The notes beneath the pieces were generated by a model. It saw nothing but the letters and a program-made list of their open reading frames with translations. It was not told the origin of the DNA and did no database searches. From a virus, in IMG/VR virus record IMGVR_UViG_3300005537_000002, positions 113,638-177,637 of that record: a stretch of DNA of 64,000 nt; one strand, 5' to 3'. Each line of letters begins with the position of its first letter. Position 1 is the stretch's first letter. Made by a program: the position numbers and the translations under genes. This document shows, piece by piece, positions 50,104 through 60,797 of the stretch.

Positions 50104-50337
50104 ATGCATTCTTTAAGGGTTATGTCCTCTAGGGGAGACGACGCAGTTGTATGGAGCGATGATCTAGCGGAAGCTCAAACAGCCGCTGTAAGGGAAGCGG
50201 AAAGCATCTTCCAGAGCGCTATGCTGAGGAGAGACTCCGCCTTTGTGATCGTCGAGGGAGAGAAACCTCGACGTGTTACTACATTTGATCGTACAGCACC
50301 CCTAATTCTTATACTTCCTCGGGTAGTAGGTGGCTAG
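50104..50337 (+). CDS. Small di-glycine-ending ubiquitin-like (beta-grasp candidate) protein 1
   Basis: 77 aa, ends FDRTAPLILILPRVVGG-stop; paralogue of 57782-58030. Confidence 0.65.
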   Translation: MHSLRVMSSRGDDAVVWSDDLAEAQTAAVREAESIFQSAMLRRDSAFVIVEGEKPRRVTTFDRTAPLILILPRVVGG

Positions 50338-51543: not shown

Positions 51544-51712
51544 TCCGTAGTGGGGTAGCGACCTGCTACGATTCAGTAGATGCCAGTCGCAGTGGTCTTG
51601 TGGAATCTCCGTCTGCGGCGAAGCATTTGTTGACCTTCTACTAAGTACACGTGCTCCACAACCTTTTACTGTATGGCAGTGTATGAGAGCAGGTATTACT
51701 TAGCGGAAGCGT

Positions 51713-51782
51713 AGCGAGGAGAGCCGGTGCTCCGGGAGGTCTCATAAGCCTCCCTTGGCTAGTTCAACCCTAGCCCTCGCCA
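51713..51782 (+). tRNA. tRNA-Met(CAU), possibly initiator-like
   Basis: Loop CT-CAT-AA; T-arm GCTAG-TTCAACC-CTAGC; 1:72 mismatch; very short D-loop; no CCA. Confidence 0.7.
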
Positions 51783-51794
51783 TTATGGAGACCC

Positions 51795-51823
51795 TTGATT
51801 TTAAGAGTTTAGTATTATATAAT
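51795..51823 (+). promoter_or_regulatory. Promoter within the tRNA array
   Basis: TTGATT-17-TATAAT. Confidence 0.7.
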
Positions 51824-51904
51824 TAATACAAGGAGTTATGTAAATGAGTGTATGTGTCCATACCTTTCTTTGTGGAGAAAGCCTCAATTATTTACATAAC
51901 GCTT

Positions 51905-51976
51905 CCGAATGAAGTGCAGGGGTTGCACACTCGCCCTGGGAGCGAGAAGTCGTTGGTTCGAATCCAACCATTCGGA
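51905..51976 (+). tRNA. tRNA-Pro(UGG), non-canonical C33 and A8
   Basis: CTCGC-CCTGGGA-GCGAG anticodon arm; full cloverleaf. Confidence 0.8.
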
Positions 51977-52080
51977 CCGAGAAGGCTCTAGTGATTGCAC
52001 ATCACTTAAACTCAAATTTACCTGTGAGGGGGTAACTTAGAGGATAGAGCACTTCTCTATTTCATTCAGTCACGAAGTTG

Positions 52081-52156
52081 GCTAGTATAACTCAATTGGT
52101 AGAGTAGCGCTCCTGTAAAGCGCCTGTTGAGAGTTCGAGTCTCTCTGCTAGCTCCA
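52081..52156 (+). tRNA. tRNA-Thr(UGU), non-canonical C33
   Basis: GCGCT-CCTGTAA-AGCGC; encoded CCA. Confidence 0.85.
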
Positions 52157-52560
52157 AGACCTCTCGGGAAGGTCTTGCGATACTCTATGGAAGAGGAGTT
52201 GCTTCCATAGAGTACTTGATACACTTTGCCCTGTGAAGCCCTACTAATAAGCGTTGCTTCTCGCCGGACGCAACGGTATTGGTAGTACCTACTGAGCGAG
52301 TTGTATCAAGTCTTATGTGAGTCGACTGGCGTCTCCCTGGTATCGACAAGTACTCAGCTGGACCTCTGAACAGTCGACTCACATAAGTATTCGGTCCCGT
52401 CACGTCTAGGCTTTGTAGAACCCGTTGCATCAGTGCTACAAAGTTGTGCGGGTTGCAGAAGTCAGCAGTAGCGTTCTTTACTTTGCTTCGACCTCAAGTA
52501 AAGGTCGCCATCCACTGCTGACTCCCGAGACTATTTCGTTGTACCCTAACCGTACGAGCG
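52157..52560 (+). ncRNA. Candidate large structured RNA
   Basis: Perfect stems of 13, 10, 17, 9 and 8 bp, some nested; no RBS-supported plus-strand ORF. Confidence 0.45.
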
Positions 52561-52561
52561 T

Positions 52562-52633
52562 ACAAACTTAGCTCACTGGTAGAGCAATTGCTTTCGGTGC
52601 AATGGGTTACTGGTTCAAGTCCAGTAGTTTACC
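52562..52633 (+). tRNA. tRNA-Arg(UCG), acceptor stem degenerate
   Basis: ATTGC-TTTCGGT-GCAAT; good D and T arms; only 5 acceptor pairs. Confidence 0.6.
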
Positions 52634-52663
52634 TTAGCTCTTACAACTCGTACAGCGAAATAC

Positions 52664-52739
52664 GCTAGAGTAACTCAATTGGTAGAGTGCTTGTTTTCCA
52701 AACAAGCGGTTGAGGGTTCAAGTCCCTTCTCTAGCTCCA
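52664..52739 (+). tRNA. tRNA-Gly(UCC)
   Basis: CTTGT-TTTCCAA-ACAAG; U73; CCA. Confidence 0.9.
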
Positions 52740-52815
52740 CGGTACTTAGGAGATGAGGTACCGTGACAGTGTCGCGAAAGTGCGTGAGAGTATACGGAGC
52801 TCTCACGCACTTTGC

Positions 52816-52896
52816 AGAGTCTTTAGCTTAAAAGGTAAAGCACTACTCGAACGGGGGTGTCTGAGTAAGGATGTGGTTCGATTCCACAAGGCTCTA
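52816..52896 (+). tRNA. tRNA-like cloverleaf with a 14-nt anticodon loop
   Basis: Acceptor, D and T arms intact; TACTC/GAGTA stem encloses GAACGGGGGTGTCT. Confidence 0.5.
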
Positions 52897-53069
52897 TCGT
52901 AGATCGCGTCGGCACTAGGCACGCCGACGAGTCCGTTCCAGGATAATGACGCGATCTACGACTTTGATTAGTGTGAGAAGCTAATCAAAGTCGGGACTAG
53001 TTTACACTTGGTCATACTGAACTGGATGAGTCTCTCTTAAGCATGATGGAGCTATAACTAGTCCCACTA

Positions 53070-53154
53070 GGGAGTGAGGGTAGCACTATGATAACGTTTG
53101 TTTCCAGGTTGCAAGCGCTCGTAGGGTGCAGTTCGAATCTGCACGCTTCCACCA
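53070..53154 (+). ncRNA. tRNA-like element with an Ala-type acceptor (G3-U70, A73, CCA)
   Basis: GGGAGTG/CGCTTCC-A-CCA and canonical T-arm; no canonical D or anticodon arm. Confidence 0.5.
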
Positions 53155-53234
53155 GGAGTAGCGGAGTCCATCTCTTGCGACTTTCTGACTTGGGGAATAT
53201 GGGGATCAACGCGCAAGCATAGATCCTCTCGCTT

Positions 53235-53307
53235 GCCAGTGTGGTGCAACGGCAGACACCTATGGTTTAGGCCCATAGCATTAAGGGTTCGATTCCCTTC
53301 ACTGGCA
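53235..53307 (+). tRNA. tRNA-Leu(UAG) with a short variable loop
   Basis: TATGG-TTTAGGC-CCATA; 5-nt variable region; A73. Confidence 0.85.
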
Positions 53308-53374
53308 TTCCTTTGAGGAACTCCGCGCCTTCAAAGGAAATCTTCCGCTTCAGTGCTTTACAACTGAATAAGGT

Positions 53375-53444
53375 CTGTGAAGTCGTACAACCGGTAGTAC
53401 CAGCTTAGGACAGGTTGATGTAGGTTCGAATCCTACTTTCGCAA
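53375..53444 (+). pseudogene. Degenerate tRNA-like element
   Basis: D-arm GTAC/GTAC and T-arm GTAGG-TTCGAAT-CCTAC; anticodon/variable region 3-4 nt short. Confidence 0.4.
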
Positions 53445-53847
53445 TGAGAGGCTGACTACATTCAATTTCGGGAGTGTAGTGTGTCGGAATGAATTGTGGT
53501 TGGTCTTTCTCACGGGAGTTGCGGTCCGTAGGGAGAGGACACCGTTCTGAGTACCGGGAATGAGCAAGAACATTCTGTCGGCTCCAGGAGAGGACACTGT
53601 AGTTCGTAGGTGACTCCTGACGCCACCAAAGCAAGTTGGTCCATTGGGTTGTTGCTTGCTTGCGGAAAGGATGTACCGAAAGACTATAGCAGACTCAACG
53701 GAGACTGCGTAGTAGGGTATGCGGTCACGCGGAGAAGTGAGTTCGAATCTCACCAACTTCCATCACTAAGGGATGAGTTGCCTGTCGACCTTAGTGACGA
53801 CTTTCTAGGGGTAGTGTCGTATCCGGTCTCAATAACGACACTACTTC

Positions 53848-53921
53848 GTCCGACTAGCTTAACAAGGAAGAGCGCTTCACTCCAAATGAAGCAGATGAGG
53901 GTTCGAGTCCTTCGTCGGGCG
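53848..53921 (+). tRNA. tRNA-Trp(CCA)
   Basis: CTTCA-CTCCAAA-TGAAG; full cloverleaf. Confidence 0.9.
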
Positions 53922-54036
53922 TTAGTGTAGGGTTAGCTTCTTTCCTTCTAACCTACACTATAAAGGTCATCGATCCTTTCGCGGTGACTTACTAGCTACA
54001 CGAGGACGTAAAGATGTTTTACGTCCTTCACTTTTC

Positions 54037-54112
54037 GGTCTTGTAGCTCAACGGTAGAGAGCACCGACCTTATAAGTCGAAGATAGTGGTTCAACTCCAC
54101 TCGAGACTACCA
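54037..54112 (+). tRNA. tRNA-Ile(UAU)
   Basis: Loop CT-TAT-AA; A73; encoded CCA. Confidence 0.85.
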
Positions 54113-54136
54113 AAAACAAACAGAGGAGAGTTAGTA

Positions 54137-54442
54137 GTGCGTATCTATTGTGAAGACGGTAAGTTGTTTCTCGCTATCAACGACAGTACATTCTTCCACA
54201 CTATTGAGGAGTGGAGTCAATTCTTTATTAAGTGTAATTGGTTCGACTTCCATCTATGGCAGGCATACCTAATGTGGGATATCTGCGTTCCAGGTGTAGA
54301 AGCGGAATTTATTCTATTAGGGTTGGGAGTTCGCTTTCGAATGAACTTCGATTGGGAAGGAAGCGAGATTGGAGACCGACTAGAAGAACTTCGTAGGTCT
54401 CGGGAGCCCGATCCGTGTGAGGATGAATATGAGTTGTCTTAG
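54137..54442 (+). CDS. Hypothetical protein between tRNAs
   Basis: GAGGAG RBS, GTG start; stop overlaps the 5' end of tRNA-Phe. Confidence 0.6.
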   Translation: MRIYCEDGKLFLAINDSTFFHTIEEWSQFFIKCNWFDFHLWQAYLMWDICVPGVEAEFILLGLGVRFRMNFDWEGSEIGDRLEELRRSREPDPCEDEYELS

Positions 54443-54505
54443 CTCAGTAGGTAGAGCGCCACACTGAAAATGTGGGTGTCACTGGTTCGAGTCCAGTAGG
54501 CAACA
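54433..54505 (+). tRNA. tRNA-Phe(GAA)
   Basis: CCACA-CTGAAAA-TGTGG; full cloverleaf. Confidence 0.92.
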
Positions 54506-55472: not shown

Positions 55473-56183
55473 TTAGTCTTCCCAAACGTGTTTAGCGTAG
55501 CGAAGACCCTCTTTCATAAAGAGGATAGCTTCCTGCAAGTCGTATTCAGCAGCGTTGTGGTCTTTTTGGAATATGGTGATGTCTGTTCGATATGGCGTCG
55601 GATGCCCAACAGGCATTCCTGGCCATCGGCCGTGTTTATTTGGGTAGTGTACTGGACTTTCGTCCCAAATGGCGTAGCTACCGTTGCTGTATTGCATGAT
55701 GTAAGCTTTCGAGACGTACTCTCCGTACCTCTGTATAGCAAGTACATTGTTGTATGTACTTCTTACGGTCGCTTCGTTCGCAAGTGGAGGAAGTTGTATA
55801 AGACGACGCACACTTAACGGAGTAACTAGTTCAATAGGTACGAGGTCTATGAGTTTCATGCACCTATACATGAGTCTCATAAGAGAGCCTTCTACAGGCG
55901 TGTCTGGAAAGCTACTGCTGAACGAGTATTCGTAGCCCCCTGGAAAGTCACTTTCTGTGTGAGGGTCGTGAGCACTCGGTACAAGAATATGGATAGATCC
56001 ATAGTCATCGAAGAGTGCTGTACGAAACGTACCCGATAGGAAGTTACAGAACGTCTGCTTGTGAGTAGCGTACGTGTCACTCACACTATCTGAGTTGTCT
56101 GACCAATCACGCATAGTTGCTGGGTAACTTGGGTAGTTTGGGTGGACTGGTGCCCGGAAGTCTTCAACAAATTGTTCTGTCAA
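55473..56183 (-). CDS. Hypothetical protein
   Basis: 236-aa ORF with its own promoter and a GAAGGAG RBS. Confidence 0.75.
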   Translation of the reverse strand: MTEQFVEDFRAPVHPNYPSYPATMRDWSDNSDSVSDTYATHKQTFCNFLSGTFRTALFDDYGSIHILVPSAHDPHTESDFPGGYEYSFSSSFPDTPVEGSLMRLMYRCMKLIDLVPIELVTPLSVRRLIQLPPLANEATVRSTYNNVLAIQRYGEYVSKAYIMQYSNGSYAIWDESPVHYPNKHGRWPGMPVGHPTPYRTDITIFQKDHNAAEYDLQEAILFMKEGLRYAKHVWED

Positions 56184-56395: not shown

Positions 56396-57757
56396 TTGAT
56401 GGCTCCGACTAAGTCACTGACAGTAGAACTGTATACCCCTCACGAAGGTCAAAAGCTCCTACACAACTGTGCTTCACGTTTCCGGGTTATGAGTTGTGGT
56501 AGACGTTTCGGTAAGACGATGGCGTGTACGAATGAGGTTGCTAAGTTTGCGTTAGAGCACAGTGACACGCTGTCTATGTGGGTTGCTCCCGTGTATAGAC
56601 AGACTCAAATCGCCTTTCGCTTGATGTCGAAGGCGCTCAAGCAAGTATTAGCTGCAGACCCGAACAAGACTGAGTTGAGACTGGAGCTTATTAACGGTAG
56701 CACAGTTGAGTTTAGGTCTACCGAGCGGTTTGACCATTTACGCGGTGAGGGTATACACTTTCTGGTGATTGACGAAGCTGCTAGAGTAGCACAGGAAGCT
56801 TGGGAAGCCGCCTTACGTCCAGCCCTTTCTGACACTAACGGGAGGGCTATCTTTATTAGCACCCCGTTAGGTCGGAATTGGTTCTATCGAATGTTCTTAC
56901 GAGGGCAAGACTCGAGTCAGGATCAGTATAGGTCGTTTACATTCCCAACCTCTGCTAACCCCTATGTACGGAAGGACGACATTGAAGAGGCTAGACTTGC
57001 GCTTCCACAGGATGTATTCCGGCAAGAGTACTTAGCGGAGTTCCTAGAAGAGTCTGCGGGTGTCTTCCGTAACGTCGATGACTGTGTGCAAGGTGAGTTG
57101 GAGGAACCCAAGTTCGGTCACTCGTATATACTCGGTTGGGATCCAGCGAAGTATGCAGACTTCTCTGTTATGACAGTAGTCGACGTCGAGGAGCAGAAGG
57201 TCGTAGCGTTTGATCGTTCGAATGGTGTGGAATACAGAGCACAGCTAGACCGACTGGTTGATCTAGCGTATCGATATAACGGTGCGTTCGTCGTAATGGA
57301 CTGTACCGGAGTAGGTGATCCTCTACTAGAACAGGTTCGAGAACGTAATCTGCAGGTTGAGGGCTTTCTGTTTACGTCGACTAGTAAGTCACAGTTGGTG
57401 GAGAACCTGATTGTGAAGCTCGAGAAGGCGCAAATAACGTTCCCGGACATTCCTATACTCATTAACGAACTAAAGTCGTTTGAACACCGCTATACGCCCT
57501 CTCGATATTTGCAATACAGTGCTCCTGAAGGTATGACAGACGACTGTGTGATGTCACTGGCATTAGCCGCTTGGAGATTAGTGACGAGCGTGCAGACCAT
57601 ACCTCTCGCCGTGTCGTATAGTGTGCCTGTACCAGTTGTAGTGAGAAGTATTCCGAGTGTGGTAGAGACTGACGACGAGGAAGTAAACCGGAGACAGTTG
57701 CAGGCGAGTAGATTTCTGAGAGAAGTGTTTACGAATGTACAGCGTCAGTTGATGTAG
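56396..57757 (+). CDS. terL: Terminase large subunit
   Basis: Walker A CGRRFGKT, Walker B LVIDEAA, motif III ISTPLG, nuclease LGWDPAK..DDCVMSLALA. Confidence 0.97.
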   Translation: MMAPTKSLTVELYTPHEGQKLLHNCASRFRVMSCGRRFGKTMACTNEVAKFALEHSDTLSMWVAPVYRQTQIAFRLMSKALKQVLAADPNKTELRLELINGSTVEFRSTERFDHLRGEGIHFLVIDEAARVAQEAWEAALRPALSDTNGRAIFISTPLGRNWFYRMFLRGQDSSQDQYRSFTFPTSANPYVRKDDIEEARLALPQDVFRQEYLAEFLEESAGVFRNVDDCVQGELEEPKFGHSYILGWDPAKYADFSVMTVVDVEEQKVVAFDRSNGVEYRAQLDRLVDLAYRYNGAFVVMDCTGVGDPLLEQVRERNLQVEGFLFTSTSKSQLVENLIVKLEKAQITFPDIPILINELKSFEHRYTPSRYLQYSAPEGMTDDCVMSLALAAWRLVTSVQTIPLAVSYSVPVPVVVRSIPSVVETDDEEVNRRQLQASRFLREVFTNVQRQLM

Positions 57758-57781
57758 ACCAACTGACGCTGTACTTGAGTG

Positions 57782-58030
57782 CTAACCCCCTACGATACGT
57801 GGGATCATTGTGATGTGGTCAGCAGTCCGATCGAAGTGCTTGATGACTTTACGCTGGTCGCCGTAAGTGGCGATAGCTAAGTACTGTGTCGTCTGCTGCT
57901 TCTCAGCGAAGATGCGTACTGCTTCCTGGACTGCTGCGATTTGATCTTCGACAAGCGTAGCAGCCTCCGAGACTGTCGGGTAGTCGTAGGTTGTATCGCC
58001 TGTACGGTCAAGGATTCTGAGTTTACCCAC
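57782..58030 (-). CDS. Small di-glycine-ending ubiquitin-like (beta-grasp candidate) protein 2
   Basis: 82 aa, GTG start after GGAAGG; ends FDRTADHITMIPRIVGG-stop. Confidence 0.65.
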   Translation of the reverse strand: MGKLRILDRTGDTTYDYPTVSEAATLVEDQIAAVQEAVRIFAEKQQTTQYLAIATYGDQRKVIKHFDRTADHITMIPRIVGG

Positions 58031-58079
58031 TTGGGTACCTTCCTTTCGTTGTAGAGAAAGTATTTCTTCCTCTATTTAT

Positions 58080-58109
58080 ATTATAAAGTATTTACATATC
58101 GTTTTACAA
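58080..58109 (-). promoter_or_regulatory. Promoter of Ubl-like gene 2
   Basis: Minus-strand TTGTAA-18-TATAAT. Confidence 0.75.
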
Positions 58110-58114
58110 GAGGG

Positions 58115-59008
58115 CTATTCCTCTCTAAGTAGTTGCAGGGCTCTACGCTGTAAGTAGTCCGTATGGTAGTATCTATTGCCTGTACTTAAGAATGTAGCTT
58201 CGTCAGCCCATAGTAGTAGTATCAGTGAGAGAATCTGGTCAGCGATAGGGAGTTCAGTTACCTTGCCCGACGTTTGGATACAGACTTGGTCTACCTGTAT
58301 GTCACGTTCGTAAATGTACGTGTTGATGTGGTGGTCCTTGCGGGATCTCACTGCGTTTACTGCGACTTGTAGTGCAGTTGTGTTCATAGCAAACTCTCTA
58401 TCCGCCGTGAGTGGGTCCGATTCTGGGCCTCTCCAGGTAGGGTAGTAGTATTGACTAGTTACTCCAGTGAAGACGTAGACTCTACTAGGTACATTAACGC
58501 TACGGACGGGAACACAACCTAGTTGTACGTAGCACTGCCACTGTGCTTCCGTAAGGTGTGAACGTAGCGTGTTTTCAGCTCGCTCGACGACTTCAGCTTC
58601 AGCTTTGTAACGTCGTTCGTATGCGTCTCGACGCTCTTCGGCTTCTCTCGCCATAGCGTCTCGGCGCGCTTGTGAGTATCGTTCTAGTTCGTTCTCAAGC
58701 GCTTCCTCATCGTCCTGGATCTGAGTAACCCACCAAAGAGCGACTTCTTTAGGTACCAGCGTTCGAAAGTGGTCGTAGTCTCCGTGTAGAGACTCTATTC
58801 TTCTACCGCCGTGTCTAGCGATATTAAGTGCAGCTGTCTCAAGCTTAATACGGTAGTGTTCTCCCTGATGTACTTGAGAATCTAGCTCGATGTACTTGTT
58901 AGCACATGCTTGAGCCCATGGAACGTTGCCAAGGCGGAGCTTTAAGGCCTTAGAGGCAGCAAATCCTCTACGTACTCTGTCTGCTAATGAGGTTGAGGTA
59001 TCCGGCAC
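58115..59008 (-). CDS. Ubl-associated protein: coiled coil plus a C-terminal Cys-containing domain (putative E2-like)
   Basis: The ORF itself is clear; QVCIQ...PIADQILSLILLL loosely resembles the E2 active-site Cys and following helix (functional call is inference). Confidence 0.4.
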   Translation of the reverse strand: MPDTSTSLADRVRRGFAASKALKLRLGNVPWAQACANKYIELDSQVHQGEHYRIKLETAALNIARHGGRRIESLHGDYDHFRTLVPKEVALWWVTQIQDDEEALENELERYSQARRDAMAREAEERRDAYERRYKAEAEVVERAENTLRSHLTEAQWQCYVQLGCVPVRSVNVPSRVYVFTGVTSQYYYPTWRGPESDPLTADREFAMNTTALQVAVNAVRSRKDHHINTYIYERDIQVDQVCIQTSGKVTELPIADQILSLILLLWADEATFLSTGNRYYHTDYLQRRALQLLREE

Positions 59009-59046
59009 GAGCGTATCCTTTCCTGGTAAAAGTATTTACTAATTAT

Positions 59047-59076
59047 ATTATAATATAAACTCTCGGTTGAAATCAA
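59047..59076 (-). promoter_or_regulatory. Promoter of the antisense cassette
   Basis: Minus-strand TTGATT-18-TATAAT, overlapping the portal 5' region. Confidence 0.75.
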
Positions 59077-59084
59077 GAGGGTGT

Positions 59085-60797
59085 ATGACGAAGAAACGTC
59101 GCAAACAGCTTACTCCCGTTCCTAGAGGGTCCGAGAAAGCTTATAGACAGCTAGTTCAACTAGTAGAGGCTCCCGAACTCGATGTGCAACGAGTGCAGCA
59201 ACTGTTAGTATCGAACCCGGTGCTGCTAAAGGTACTGGACGGTGTAAGGAATCGAGAGTTAGCAAGACAGGAAGCGTTGACTAGACCAGATATAGCGTTA
59301 GCATCCCCGACTCAGGACTTTCCGAGAGGTGGTGAGTCAGGATTTCCAGCTGCTTGGACTGGTGCTAGGAACTATCCTATCGGAGTTAGTAACGCTAGGG
59401 TACTACGTCAGTTAGCAGATACCGACCCATGGGTTAGAGCAGCTATTACCGTACGTAGACAGCAGATTGGTCGAGCGGATATAGCCGTAGTACCACTGAA
59501 CGAGCGTAAACCCTATAGTCGTACTGTTATGAAGAAGGTACAGCACCTCTTAGATCAGCCGAATGAGTATAGGGACAGTTACCGGTCACTCATTGAGCCT
59601 GTGCTAGAAGACGTGCTCGTGTTGGACCGTGGTGTTATTACCAAGAACATGACGATTATGCGCCAGCCAGTCGGTTTGTACTACGAGGACGGAGCTACGA
59701 TTAAGATCTACCCACAATGGTCAGGAGACCCGAACGAACCTAGATATTTGTATGAAGACGACGTTGGTAGAGTGAAGAAACCCCTCCGTAATGACGAGTG
59801 CATCGTCATAATGGCCAACCCCGCGTCGTACCGATACGGATTGTCGCCGGTGCAAGTGTTGTATGAGACCATTCAAGCGGACTTGAAAGCGTCTACAGCG
59901 GCTATGCACATGGTAGATATGAAACCACCACCTCACGCTGTGCAAGTACCCGGTGCTACGGAAGCACAGATCACTCGCTTGCGGATGATGTACGACACTG
60001 AGATTGCTGGCCGTAAGGAAGTGTTCTGGTTCGGTGGTAATAACCCTGCGAATCACTTTCCGCTGATATTCTCCGCTAAAGACAATCAGTGGCTCGAGTG
60101 GCAGGTGTATATTGTCCGTAAAATGTCCGCAGTCTTTCAACTCTCACCTCAGCAGTTAGGAGTGACATTCGATATTAACAAGGCAAACGCTGAGGTTCAG
60201 CAGGAGATTTTTGAGGATACCGGTTTAATTCCCCTATTATTACTGCTCGAAGAGTTCCTCAATCGAGAGTTACTAGCAGACTATGCACAGCAACTGCCGA
60301 ACGACCGTTCTAATTTAGCAGCTCTTAACCTTCGTATCGTGTATCCAGAAGTAAGTGAAGCCGCTCGACAGTTACACGCTGAACGTGCTGTAAACCTAGC
60401 TGCGAAGGGTATGGCGGGTCTGCCTTCTATGACCCTGAATCAGGTACTGGCGATGCGTGGTGAGGAACCCGTAGCTGGAGGAGACGCATTCTACGTCAAT
60501 ACGACTGCTGGACCACTAAAGTGGCTGTCATACGGAACGGGTTATCTAGGTGGAGACTATGGTCCACGTTCAGGCTCTGGTGTTATCGGTGCTCAAGATC
60601 CTGCTAGTGGAACTAGTGAGGACGCTGACTCACCTTCTACTACACCTGCCGACGATGATCCGACTTCTTCTGGACCCCCACCAGTGTTAGGCGAGTTAGG
60701 TCAACCGGTTGAGTCGGTACAAGTCGGCAGTAAGTCATTTGCTTATACACGTAGTCGGCCGCCAGGTAAGCGCTGGACTAGTAGATATACAGATTAA
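59085..60797 (+). CDS. Portal protein (HK97-like)
   Basis: WVRAAITVRRQQI, LLDQPN, YRYGLSPV, SAVFQLSPQQLG..NKANAE motifs; position between terL and the protease. Confidence 0.92.
   Translation: MTKKRRKQLTPVPRGSEKAYRQLVQLVEAPELDVQRVQQLLVSNPVLLKVLDGVRNRELARQEALTRPDIALASPTQDFPRGGESGFPAAWTGARNYPIGVSNARVLRQLADTDPWVRAAITVRRQQIGRADIAVVPLNERKPYSRTVMKKVQHLLDQPNEYRDSYRSLIEPVLEDVLVLDRGVITKNMTIMRQPVGLYYEDGATIKIYPQWSGDPNEPRYLYEDDVGRVKKPLRNDECIVIMANPASYRYGLSPVQVLYETIQADLKASTAAMHMVDMKPPPHAVQVPGATEAQITRLRMMYDTEIAGRKEVFWFGGNNPANHFPLIFSAKDNQWLEWQVYIVRKMSAVFQLSPQQLGVTFDINKANAEVQQEIFEDTGLIPLLLLLEEFLNRELLADYAQQLPNDRSNLAALNLRIVYPEVSEAARQLHAERAVNLAAKGMAGLPSMTLNQVLAMRGEEPVAGGDAFYVNTTAGPLKWLSYGTGYLGGDYGPRSGSGVIGAQDPASGTSEDADSPSTTPADDDPTSSGPPPVLGELGQPVESVQVGSKSFAYTRSRPPGKRWTSRYTD

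Follow-up and report, generated by a model that had tools for sequence, protein, structure and literature searches.

A phage-borne gene pair for a Gly-Gly-ended beta-grasp protein and a putative E2-fold partner, with a chromosomal counterpart in Ktedonobacteria

To our knowledge, every prokaryotic system for conjugating ubiquitin-like (Ubl) proteins that has been characterised—Bil, Bub/6E, Cap2 of the cyclic-oligonucleotide-based antiphage signalling system (CBASS), and the archaeal SAMP and ubiquitin operons—carries its own E1. The operons of Bil (BilABCD) and of Bub/6E always include an E1 adenylase together with a JAB or other peptidase (PMC10557695, PMC11601596, bioRxiv 10.1101/2023.09.04.556158). 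In lambda-type tail assembly, the Ubl protein I and the JAB-NlpC/P60 protein K are encoded co-directionally in the tail cluster, and the Ubl is paired with a JAB peptidase (PMC1779556). The closest published comparisons for the pair described below are the Bil and Bub/6E operons together with the bacterial E2-like domains and the RWD-like domains, the latter having the E2 fold and no cysteine (Iyer et al. 2006, PMC1779556); all of these come with an E1 and, as a rule, a JAB. The subject of this paper is a cassette of two genes that lies between the terminase gene (terL) and the portal gene of a large soil phage, within what we call the window: the whole 64,000-nucleotide stretch that was analysed, which covers the final 64 kb of the phage's complete genome (177,637 bp, with direct repeats at its termini). 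One gene encodes a small protein that ends in a free Gly-Gly, and the other encodes a partner with a conserved cysteine. What could such a pair do, and where did a phage obtain it? The literature offered us no ready answer: we found in it no description of this pair as an E1-less two-gene family in Chloroflexota or their phages.

The interval between terL and portal holds two minus-strand open reading frames (ORFs), of 82 and 297 amino acids, and the families of the flanking genes agree with the initial annotation, which had placed the cassette there. Its parts are as follows.

57782-58030, minus strand: gene for the 82-aa small protein, a predicted beta-grasp (ubiquitin/ThiS-like) protein with a free Gly-Gly end (MIPRIVGG, then stop); from the ORF, the AlphaFold 2 (AF2) model, fold matches and the family alignment
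58115-59008, minus strand: gene for the 297-aa partner, comprising a Cys-less domain copy, a coiled coil and the canonical Cys domain; from the ORF, the AF2 model and the profile search
58697-58957, minus strand: N-terminal domain of the partner (residues 18-104), a degenerate Cys-less duplicate with a predicted RWD/E2/UEV-like fold and His75 in the place of the Cys
58118-58597, minus strand: C-terminal conserved Cys domain of the partner (residues 138-297); from the AF2 model, conservation and the predicted interface
58280-58282, minus strand: TGT codon of the invariant Cys243; from the sequence, conservation (0.99) and the position in the model

Because their homologues are conserved and so is their adjacency, both ORFs are real genes and not chance frames. 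A genome scan located the pair at 119 loci, 80 of which are covered by the host counts given here, and almost all of the loci belong to Ktedonobacteria (Ktedonobacter, Dictyobacter, Thermosporothrix, Ktedonospora) or to other Chloroflexota, with two copies in some genomes; the similar pair that the annotation had placed in Ktedonobacteria does exist. The Cys-domain gene stands directly downstream of the Gly-Gly gene, in the same orientation and in most cases overlapping it by 4 bp, at 77 of the 80 Chloroflexota loci, and the next most frequent neighbours are common to at most 39 of the 80. The pair is a cognate, co-inherited unit, as one would want of the partners that the annotation had taken the two genes to be.

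In the hosts, the neighbours in common are genes for Asp23, FakA, DegV, DUF3090, a 2-hydroxyacid dehydrogenase, a GAF-PAS histidine kinase, CheB, RlmN and a Ser/Thr kinase, and a single N-terminal transmembrane helix precedes the Cys domain in 76 of 77 bacterial partners. Judged by this gene content, the pair is at home in a chromosomal operon of housekeeping type, where its partner protein is membrane-anchored, and not in a defence island, which points to the hijacking of a host pathway over a purely phage invention. The pair also occurs in the metagenomic contigs L018, L023, L024, L026 and L029, in L001/L002 and in L111, and three related phages hold it in three positions: antisense between terL and portal in the window, co-directional and upstream of terL in L001/L002, and antisense beside a terS-like block in L111. 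We had considered an insertion specific to the terL-portal junction and dropped it: the terL-portal gap of the nearest relative, L001/L002, holds three unrelated plus-strand ORFs, and the pair lies elsewhere. The comparison of loci traces the cassette to the chromosomes of Ktedonobacteria and other Chloroflexota, where it is a two-gene operon with a membrane anchor that the phage copies have lost. The pair is nearly universal in Ktedonobacteria and has repeatedly been captured by their phages.

Some of these relatives have features of their own. L001 and L002 are one phage recovered from two metagenomes, and a 2-bp deletion in L002 (5150-5160) frameshifts the small Gly-Gly gene, which would be either an assembly error or a broken copy. 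In the phage-like contig L029 (1039-1290 and 2248-2472), the pair is followed by a second small paralogue (ending IPRFLGESEA), then by an Endonuclease VII gene and a gene for an Acb2/Tad1-hairpin protein, a member of an anti-CBASS/Thoeris sponge family; these genes hint at an anti-defence neighbourhood.

The small protein, modelled with AF2 from a seven-sequence alignment (predicted local distance difference test, pLDDT, 84.6; predicted template modelling score, pTM, 0.71), has the strand-strand-helix-strand-strand-strand order that had been read from its sequence, ending in a loose free tail. Foldseek matches to the model are weak (E >= 0.03, TM-score about 0.4) and are all to beta-grasp proteins (UBX, RA, SUMO, a Bacteroides ubiquitin and MoaD); an exhaustive structural aligner likewise gave beta-grasp matches alone. 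The predicted fold class is clearly beta-grasp, with no close subfamily. Homologues were recovered via genomic context, not by direct search, and in the alignment of 86 distinct sequences G11, A37, F66 and P77 are invariant (1.00), followed by R5 (0.99), D12 (0.98), R78 (0.97), and G81 and G82 (both 0.99), so that the Gly-Gly ending singled out by the annotation is indeed conserved.

In about 99% of those 86 sequences the free Gly-Gly is the C-terminus. The stop follows it exactly in 79 of 80 Chloroflexota genomic copies, and in six of eight copies from five phage or phage-like genomes (two in the window, one in L001, two in L029, and one each in L111, L024 and L027). Only one genomic copy (L107:7001-7252) has residues past the Gly-Gly; it finishes PRIAGGVS, like those Ubl precursors that have to be trimmed. 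The L027 form (L027:4285-4698) is 137 aa long, is apparently made of two tandem beta-grasp units and ends VPPTMKG; it is encoded one gene upstream of two consecutive Cys-domain genes and adjoins genes for PspA, YqiJ and flotillin.

For the partner, we made a profile from the window protein and its relative in L002, taking the C-terminal half of each, and scored it against 1.84 billion representative proteins, of which 20 matched at E <= 1e-3. One of these, P0006 of L111, is a homologue of the full 297-aa length (44-49% identical); the remaining family members share a domain of about 100 residues. Across 92 sequences of this Cys domain, genomic copies included, Y178, P254, E270 and N278 are conserved at 1.00, and C243 and D257 at 0.99. 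The AF2 model of the 297-aa protein has a pLDDT of 72.5 overall and of about 90 in the domain core, and in it the Cys domain runs helix-helix, four strands, two helices, with a low-confidence insert of about 45 residues (182-227); Cys243 closes strand 4 and precedes the conserved helix 255-268 by 11 residues. The ORF contains QVCIQ and PIADQILSLILLL, which had been matched loosely to the E2 cysteine and the helix that follows it. The core of that match held, in that conservation in the family is highest at the cysteine and along the hydrophobic helix behind it, but there is neither a match to UQ_con nor an HPN motif.

Is the partner, then, an E2 at all? An exhaustive fold search returned RWD, E2 and UEV rows with middling Z, and these align to residues ~3-125, which is the N-terminal domain and not the C-terminal domain for which the E2 match had been claimed; the list gives one alignment per chain, and a lower-Z E2 match to the Cys domain could be hidden. 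The two domains are themselves related. Aligned with hhalign, they give a probability of 90.4 and an E of 1.4e-6 over 83 columns, and the N-terminal domain scores 21.1 bits against a family hidden Markov model (HMM) built without the window and P0006 rows, with His75 at the Cys column. By these alignments, the N-terminal domain is a diverged, Cys-less duplicate of the Cys domain, and because this duplicate is homologous to it and matches RWD, E2 and UEV folds, the Cys domain family is probably of the UBC/RWD-type fold, with its cysteine at the topological position of the E2 active site. Homology to the duplicate and shared topology are the sole basis for the predicted E2-likeness.

The partner domain recurs in the same phage outside the window, in two adjacent ORFs that match it at E 4e-4 and 9e-7 (among 1,936 phage ORFs), and this family is evidently expanded in the phage, as judged by profile matches. 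The first of the two (G000:C1:95769-96566, plus strand) is Cys-less; the second (G000:C1:96500-97585, plus strand) has one degenerate copy of the domain and one with the Cys kept (FLCIQP...LPPIDMVVLHYVSLATDE). The start of the Cys domain (helix-helix-strand; profile positions 50-94) has a weak likeness to the RNA-binding domain of ribosomal protein S4, which at E 0.09 is not significant, though curious beside the ANTAR fusion described below. Two other candidates were rejected: a cysteine protease, for which the phage copies have no conserved His (H262 is bacterial only), and a profile match in the PDB to a de novo TIM barrel (7e-6), which is an artefact of helix composition.

A prediction of the complex, made from row-matched 36-sequence alignments of the small protein and partner residues 138-297, bears on whether the two meet where a conjugating pair would have to meet. 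It reached an interaction score (ipSAE) of 0.64, as against 0.23 for the best of three controls, a mark attained by 58 of 80 solved complexes and by two of 110 mismatched pairs, counts that are only rough here, since the alignments were our own. At least 95% of contacts agree between runs, and the partner pLDDT is at least 82. The predicted interface is built from conserved residues of both proteins: 243-248, 250-254, 257 and 260-278 of the partner, and 5, 7-12, 49-53, 60-62, 74 and 76-82 of the small protein, the Gly-Gly tail included. The prediction supports binding between the two with the tail and the Cys243 region both in the interface, much as the annotation had envisaged in looking for the Gly-Gly tail near the Cys.

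How new are these proteins? In scans of Pfam and PHROGs, neither had a match below E 0.08. No match to PF02597 (ThiS/MoaD) was found in seven small-protein members at E <= 1 or in the six-frame translation of the phage genome at E <= 0.1; that translation likewise contains no match at E <= 1 to UQ_con (PF00179), which was also lacking from Pfam scans of 20 partner-family members, or to RWD (PF05773). A word-indexed search of 5.8 billion proteins gave only the window proteins themselves and the L001/L002 copies of the small protein; Foldseek with the whole 297-aa model gave only noise (E >= 0.23); searches of the ESM Atlas, by features and by shape, returned solely the family's own unnamed clusters; and scans of viral contigs with alignments of the small protein and the partner found no relatives. 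We rate the pair as two new protein families and a new minimal architecture, of the type that joins a Ubl to an E2-fold partner, with clear phage capture.

What might this architecture do? We suggest that the cassette is a self-contained, mobile two-gene module. Its first gene would supply a beta-grasp protein that, when mature, ends in a free Gly-Gly, and its second gene a protein of two ~100-residue helix/four-strand/helix domains, UBC/RWD-like in look and joined by a coiled coil, of which the N-terminal copy has lost its cysteine and the C-terminal copy keeps an invariant one in the linker between strand 4 and the helix, as in the active site of an E2. A face of the small protein's sheet would pack on the conserved helix of the partner, and the C-terminal strand and Gly-Gly tail would reach the region of Cys243 and Asn278. 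Phages would have taken the host operon, swapped its membrane anchor for other N-terminal modules and moved it as a unit. The Cys domain would then be an E2-like carrier or acceptor that takes the C-terminus of the small protein as a thioester, after adenylation of the small protein by an unlinked host enzyme of the E1 type (ThiF/MoeB class), and the soluble phage version would redirect or titrate the host modifier during infection. Covalent chemistry, an activating enzyme, a target and a benefit to the phage are all things that we infer here, and we hold the chances that an E2-like Cys carrier charged by an unlinked ThiF/MoeB-class enzyme serves the phage in this way to be about even.

Several findings weigh against this proposal, and the heaviest concerns the E1. 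The complete phage genome has no Pfam match to ThiF (E1), Prok-JAB, JAB or E2, which extends to the whole genome what the annotation had reported for the window, and the genes commonly found beside the 80 host loci encode none of these either; an E1 missing both from the phage and from beside 80 host operons is the main weakness of any covalent scheme. By sequence, neither protein matches ThiS, UQ_con, RWD or any PDB chain. An HPN motif or its equivalent upstream of Cys243 is absent, the only invariant Asn (N278) being 35 residues downstream, and the Cys domain family has no conserved catalytic His. Two members of the small-protein family lack the Gly-Gly end (the second L029 paralogue, with GESEA, and the L027 form, with KG). 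In P0009, from the JGI contig 3300047160, a REC-ANTAR response regulator carries the Cys domain at its C-terminal end, no small Gly-Gly gene being adjacent, and this fusion would fit a binding or regulatory module as well as it fits an enzyme. The score of the predicted complex, finally, is the model's own confidence, derived from our own alignments.

A distant variant offers a single link to Ubl processing. In L020 (L020:3-1289; also L021 and L022), a tandem of two Cys-domain genes shares one operon with a downstream gene for Prok-JAB (PF14464), and the gene after that looks SLOG/DUF2493-like, these contigs being short. We sought a longer contig for the JAB-linked variant, and the search returned the same 1.3-kb contig alone.

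The carrier proposal has a bolder form, which we offer tentatively: that Chloroflexota have a native minimal Ubl system, made of a Gly-Gly beta-grasp protein and a membrane-anchored E2-like carrier that is charged by a moonlighting ThiF/MoeB or by E1-free chemistry; that it tags proteins, envelope or lipids at the membrane, formally like Atg8/Atg3; and that phages have captured, de-anchored and multiplied the module to tag or disarm targets in the host or the virion. In this genome, the module has been multiplied to two Gly-Gly proteins, two Cys-bearing partners and several Cys-less copies.

The same proteins might also bind each other and do nothing more. RWD and UEV domains are non-catalytic binders with the E2 fold, and they top the fold list of the partner; if the Cys domain were a binder of this kind, the pair would form a complex for regulation or scaffolding, which would sit at the membrane in the host but be soluble in the phage, with a structural or redox-sensing cysteine and the Gly-Gly as a docking peg. 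The Cys-less domain copies kept in the phage, the REC-ANTAR fusion (which suggests a binding or output module), the E1 found neither in the phage genome nor among the common neighbours of the host loci, the paralogues without Gly-Gly and a predicted interface that is large and mostly helix-to-sheet would all suit such a complex. Its main weakness is that a cysteine conserved at 99% and an exact free Gly-Gly over some 90 sequences are hard to explain by docking; the model, moreover, places the Cys and Asn278 in the part of the interface that includes the tail, and one copy has the GGVS extension, as Ubl precursors do. We consider non-covalent binding alone unlikely.

More unlikely again is a sulfur-carrier pair of the MoaD/ThiS/CysO type, in which the Gly-Gly would be thiocarboxylated by a host MoeB or ThiF and the partner's Cys would act in a sulfur relay. 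One ESM Atlas cluster neighbouring the family is auto-named 'putative ThiS', a small carrier with a partner of ~150 aa and overlapping genes recalls MoaD-MoaE, and the host locus lies among housekeeping genes. Yet PF02597 goes unmatched even at E 0.1-1, no sulfur-transfer, pyridoxal phosphate, radical S-adenosylmethionine cofactor or MoaE-like enzyme is consistently adjacent in the host loci, the partner has a membrane anchor and no match to a known sulfur enzyme, and phage carriage with expansion into Cys-less copies would be hard to explain.

Least probable is a toxin-antitoxin or abortive-infection pair, in which a small soluble antidote would restrain a membrane-anchored effector and the phage copies would be antidote mimics or decoys: a two-gene operon with a 4-bp overlap, a small first gene and then a transmembrane protein does look the part, phage copies lie near anti-defence-type genes in L029 (the Acb2/Tad1 hairpin), and a paralogue without Gly-Gly could be a decoy, but the host pair is syntenic across genera (Asp23-FakA-DegV on one side, DUF3090 and the dehydrogenase on the other), at housekeeping positions that therefore speak for vertical inheritance and not for a mobile toxin-antitoxin locus, the phage carries both genes and not the antidote alone, and our search, which PADLOC lay outside, gave no PHROGs match and no toxin-like domain.

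How the cassette sits among its neighbours is given by the following features of the window.

56396-57757, plus strand: terL, the left flank (Pfam Terminase_6N/6C; phrog_2, E 2e-44)
57737-57774, no strand assigned: 17-bp hairpin, perfectly paired, where terL and the small gene converge (-30.9 kcal/mol, z -7.5)
58080-58109, minus strand: sigma-70-like site in the 84-nt gap upstream of the small gene (TTGTAA-18-TATAAT, 10/12 matches)
59047-59076, minus strand: sigma-70-like site preceding the partner gene, within the divergent gap between that gene and portal (TTGATT-18-TATAAT, 10/12 matches)
59067-60797, plus strand: portal, the right flank (PF04860, E 1e-24; phrog_2662)
50104-50337, plus strand: second copy of the small protein, 77 aa, ending ILPRVVGG (profile E 1.9e-10; 89 bits to the family HMM)

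Both cassette genes begin with GTG, preceded by a purine-rich Shine-Dalgarno-like sequence. The annotation gave each gene its own promoter, and a sigma-70-like site does stand upstream of each, but the number of such sites (two) is not above that in shuffles (mean 1.8); separate promoters are plausible. We dropped the motif TAAATACTTT, repeated upstream of both genes, as a phage promoter element: it has five matches in the window, with four expected. The hairpin spans the terL stop codon and lies 3' of the small gene, and none of 200 shuffles folds as well; it is likely a two-way terminator without a T-run. With its promoter-like sites and its hairpin, the cassette appears to behave like a moron. 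For portal, ATG 59085 is a likelier start codon than the TTG listed (59067).

The second small-protein copy lies between a 243-aa ORF and a terS-like block, with no partner gene adjoining, and in L111 the whole cassette adjoins a block homologous to this one. Elsewhere in the window, an island of ten tRNA genes (Met, Pro, Thr, Arg, Gly, Phe, Leu, Trp, Ile(tat), Phe) occupies 51712-54505 (plus strand), upstream of the packaging genes, and an antisense ORF of 236 aa (55473-56183, minus strand) sits shortly before terL and matches no family, its best hit being a weak terS PHROG (E 0.03).

Should the chemistry prove covalent, no simpler Ubl/E2 arrangement would be known, and the pair would be a tractable model for the origin of E2-type carriers, as well as an example of a virus that takes over a modifier pathway of its bacterial host. 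If it is not covalent, the pair would still define two new protein families, and with them a conserved membrane complex from a phylum that has been little studied. Either way, cultivable hosts exist (Ktedonobacter, Dictyobacter, Thermosporothrix).

Set beside the systems with which we began, the pair resembles each of them in part. Like Bil and Bub, it places a Gly-ended prokaryotic beta-grasp protein beside a protein of predicted E2 topology with one essential-looking Cys, and it has a link to phage-host conflict; unlike them, it has no E1 or peptidase in the phage or beside 80 host operons and no sequence match to their Ubl and E2 families, and its native host version is membrane-anchored and lies among housekeeping genes. 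With the canonical E2 (UBC, UQ_con) and the UEV/RWD variants, Ubc13-Mms2 for example, the partner would share, going by its model, the order of helix, four-strand meander and helices, the Cys in the linker between strand 4 and helix 2, ~11 residues ahead of a conserved hydrophobic helix, and the predicted placing of a Ubl tail at that Cys; an active and a Cys-less copy, as in the E2/UEV pairing, would here stand within one protein. MoaD-MoaE, ThiS, CysO, SAMP, Urm1 and TtuB (PF02597) have in common with the small protein a length of ~80 aa, a beta-grasp fold, a free end of the form hydrophobic-Pro-x-x-Gly-Gly and translational coupling to a ~140-aa partner that is predicted to take the tail; in contrast to these sulfur carriers, our pair does not match PF02597, its partner is unrelated to MoaE, ThiG and CysM, no adenylase or sulfur enzyme is adjacent, and the host partner has a membrane anchor. 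As for lambda I and K, the likeness is that of a phage-encoded beta-grasp protein in or near the morphogenesis genes, and the differences are that this cassette is antisense, varies in position, has a Cys-domain partner and has a chromosomal counterpart in its hosts.

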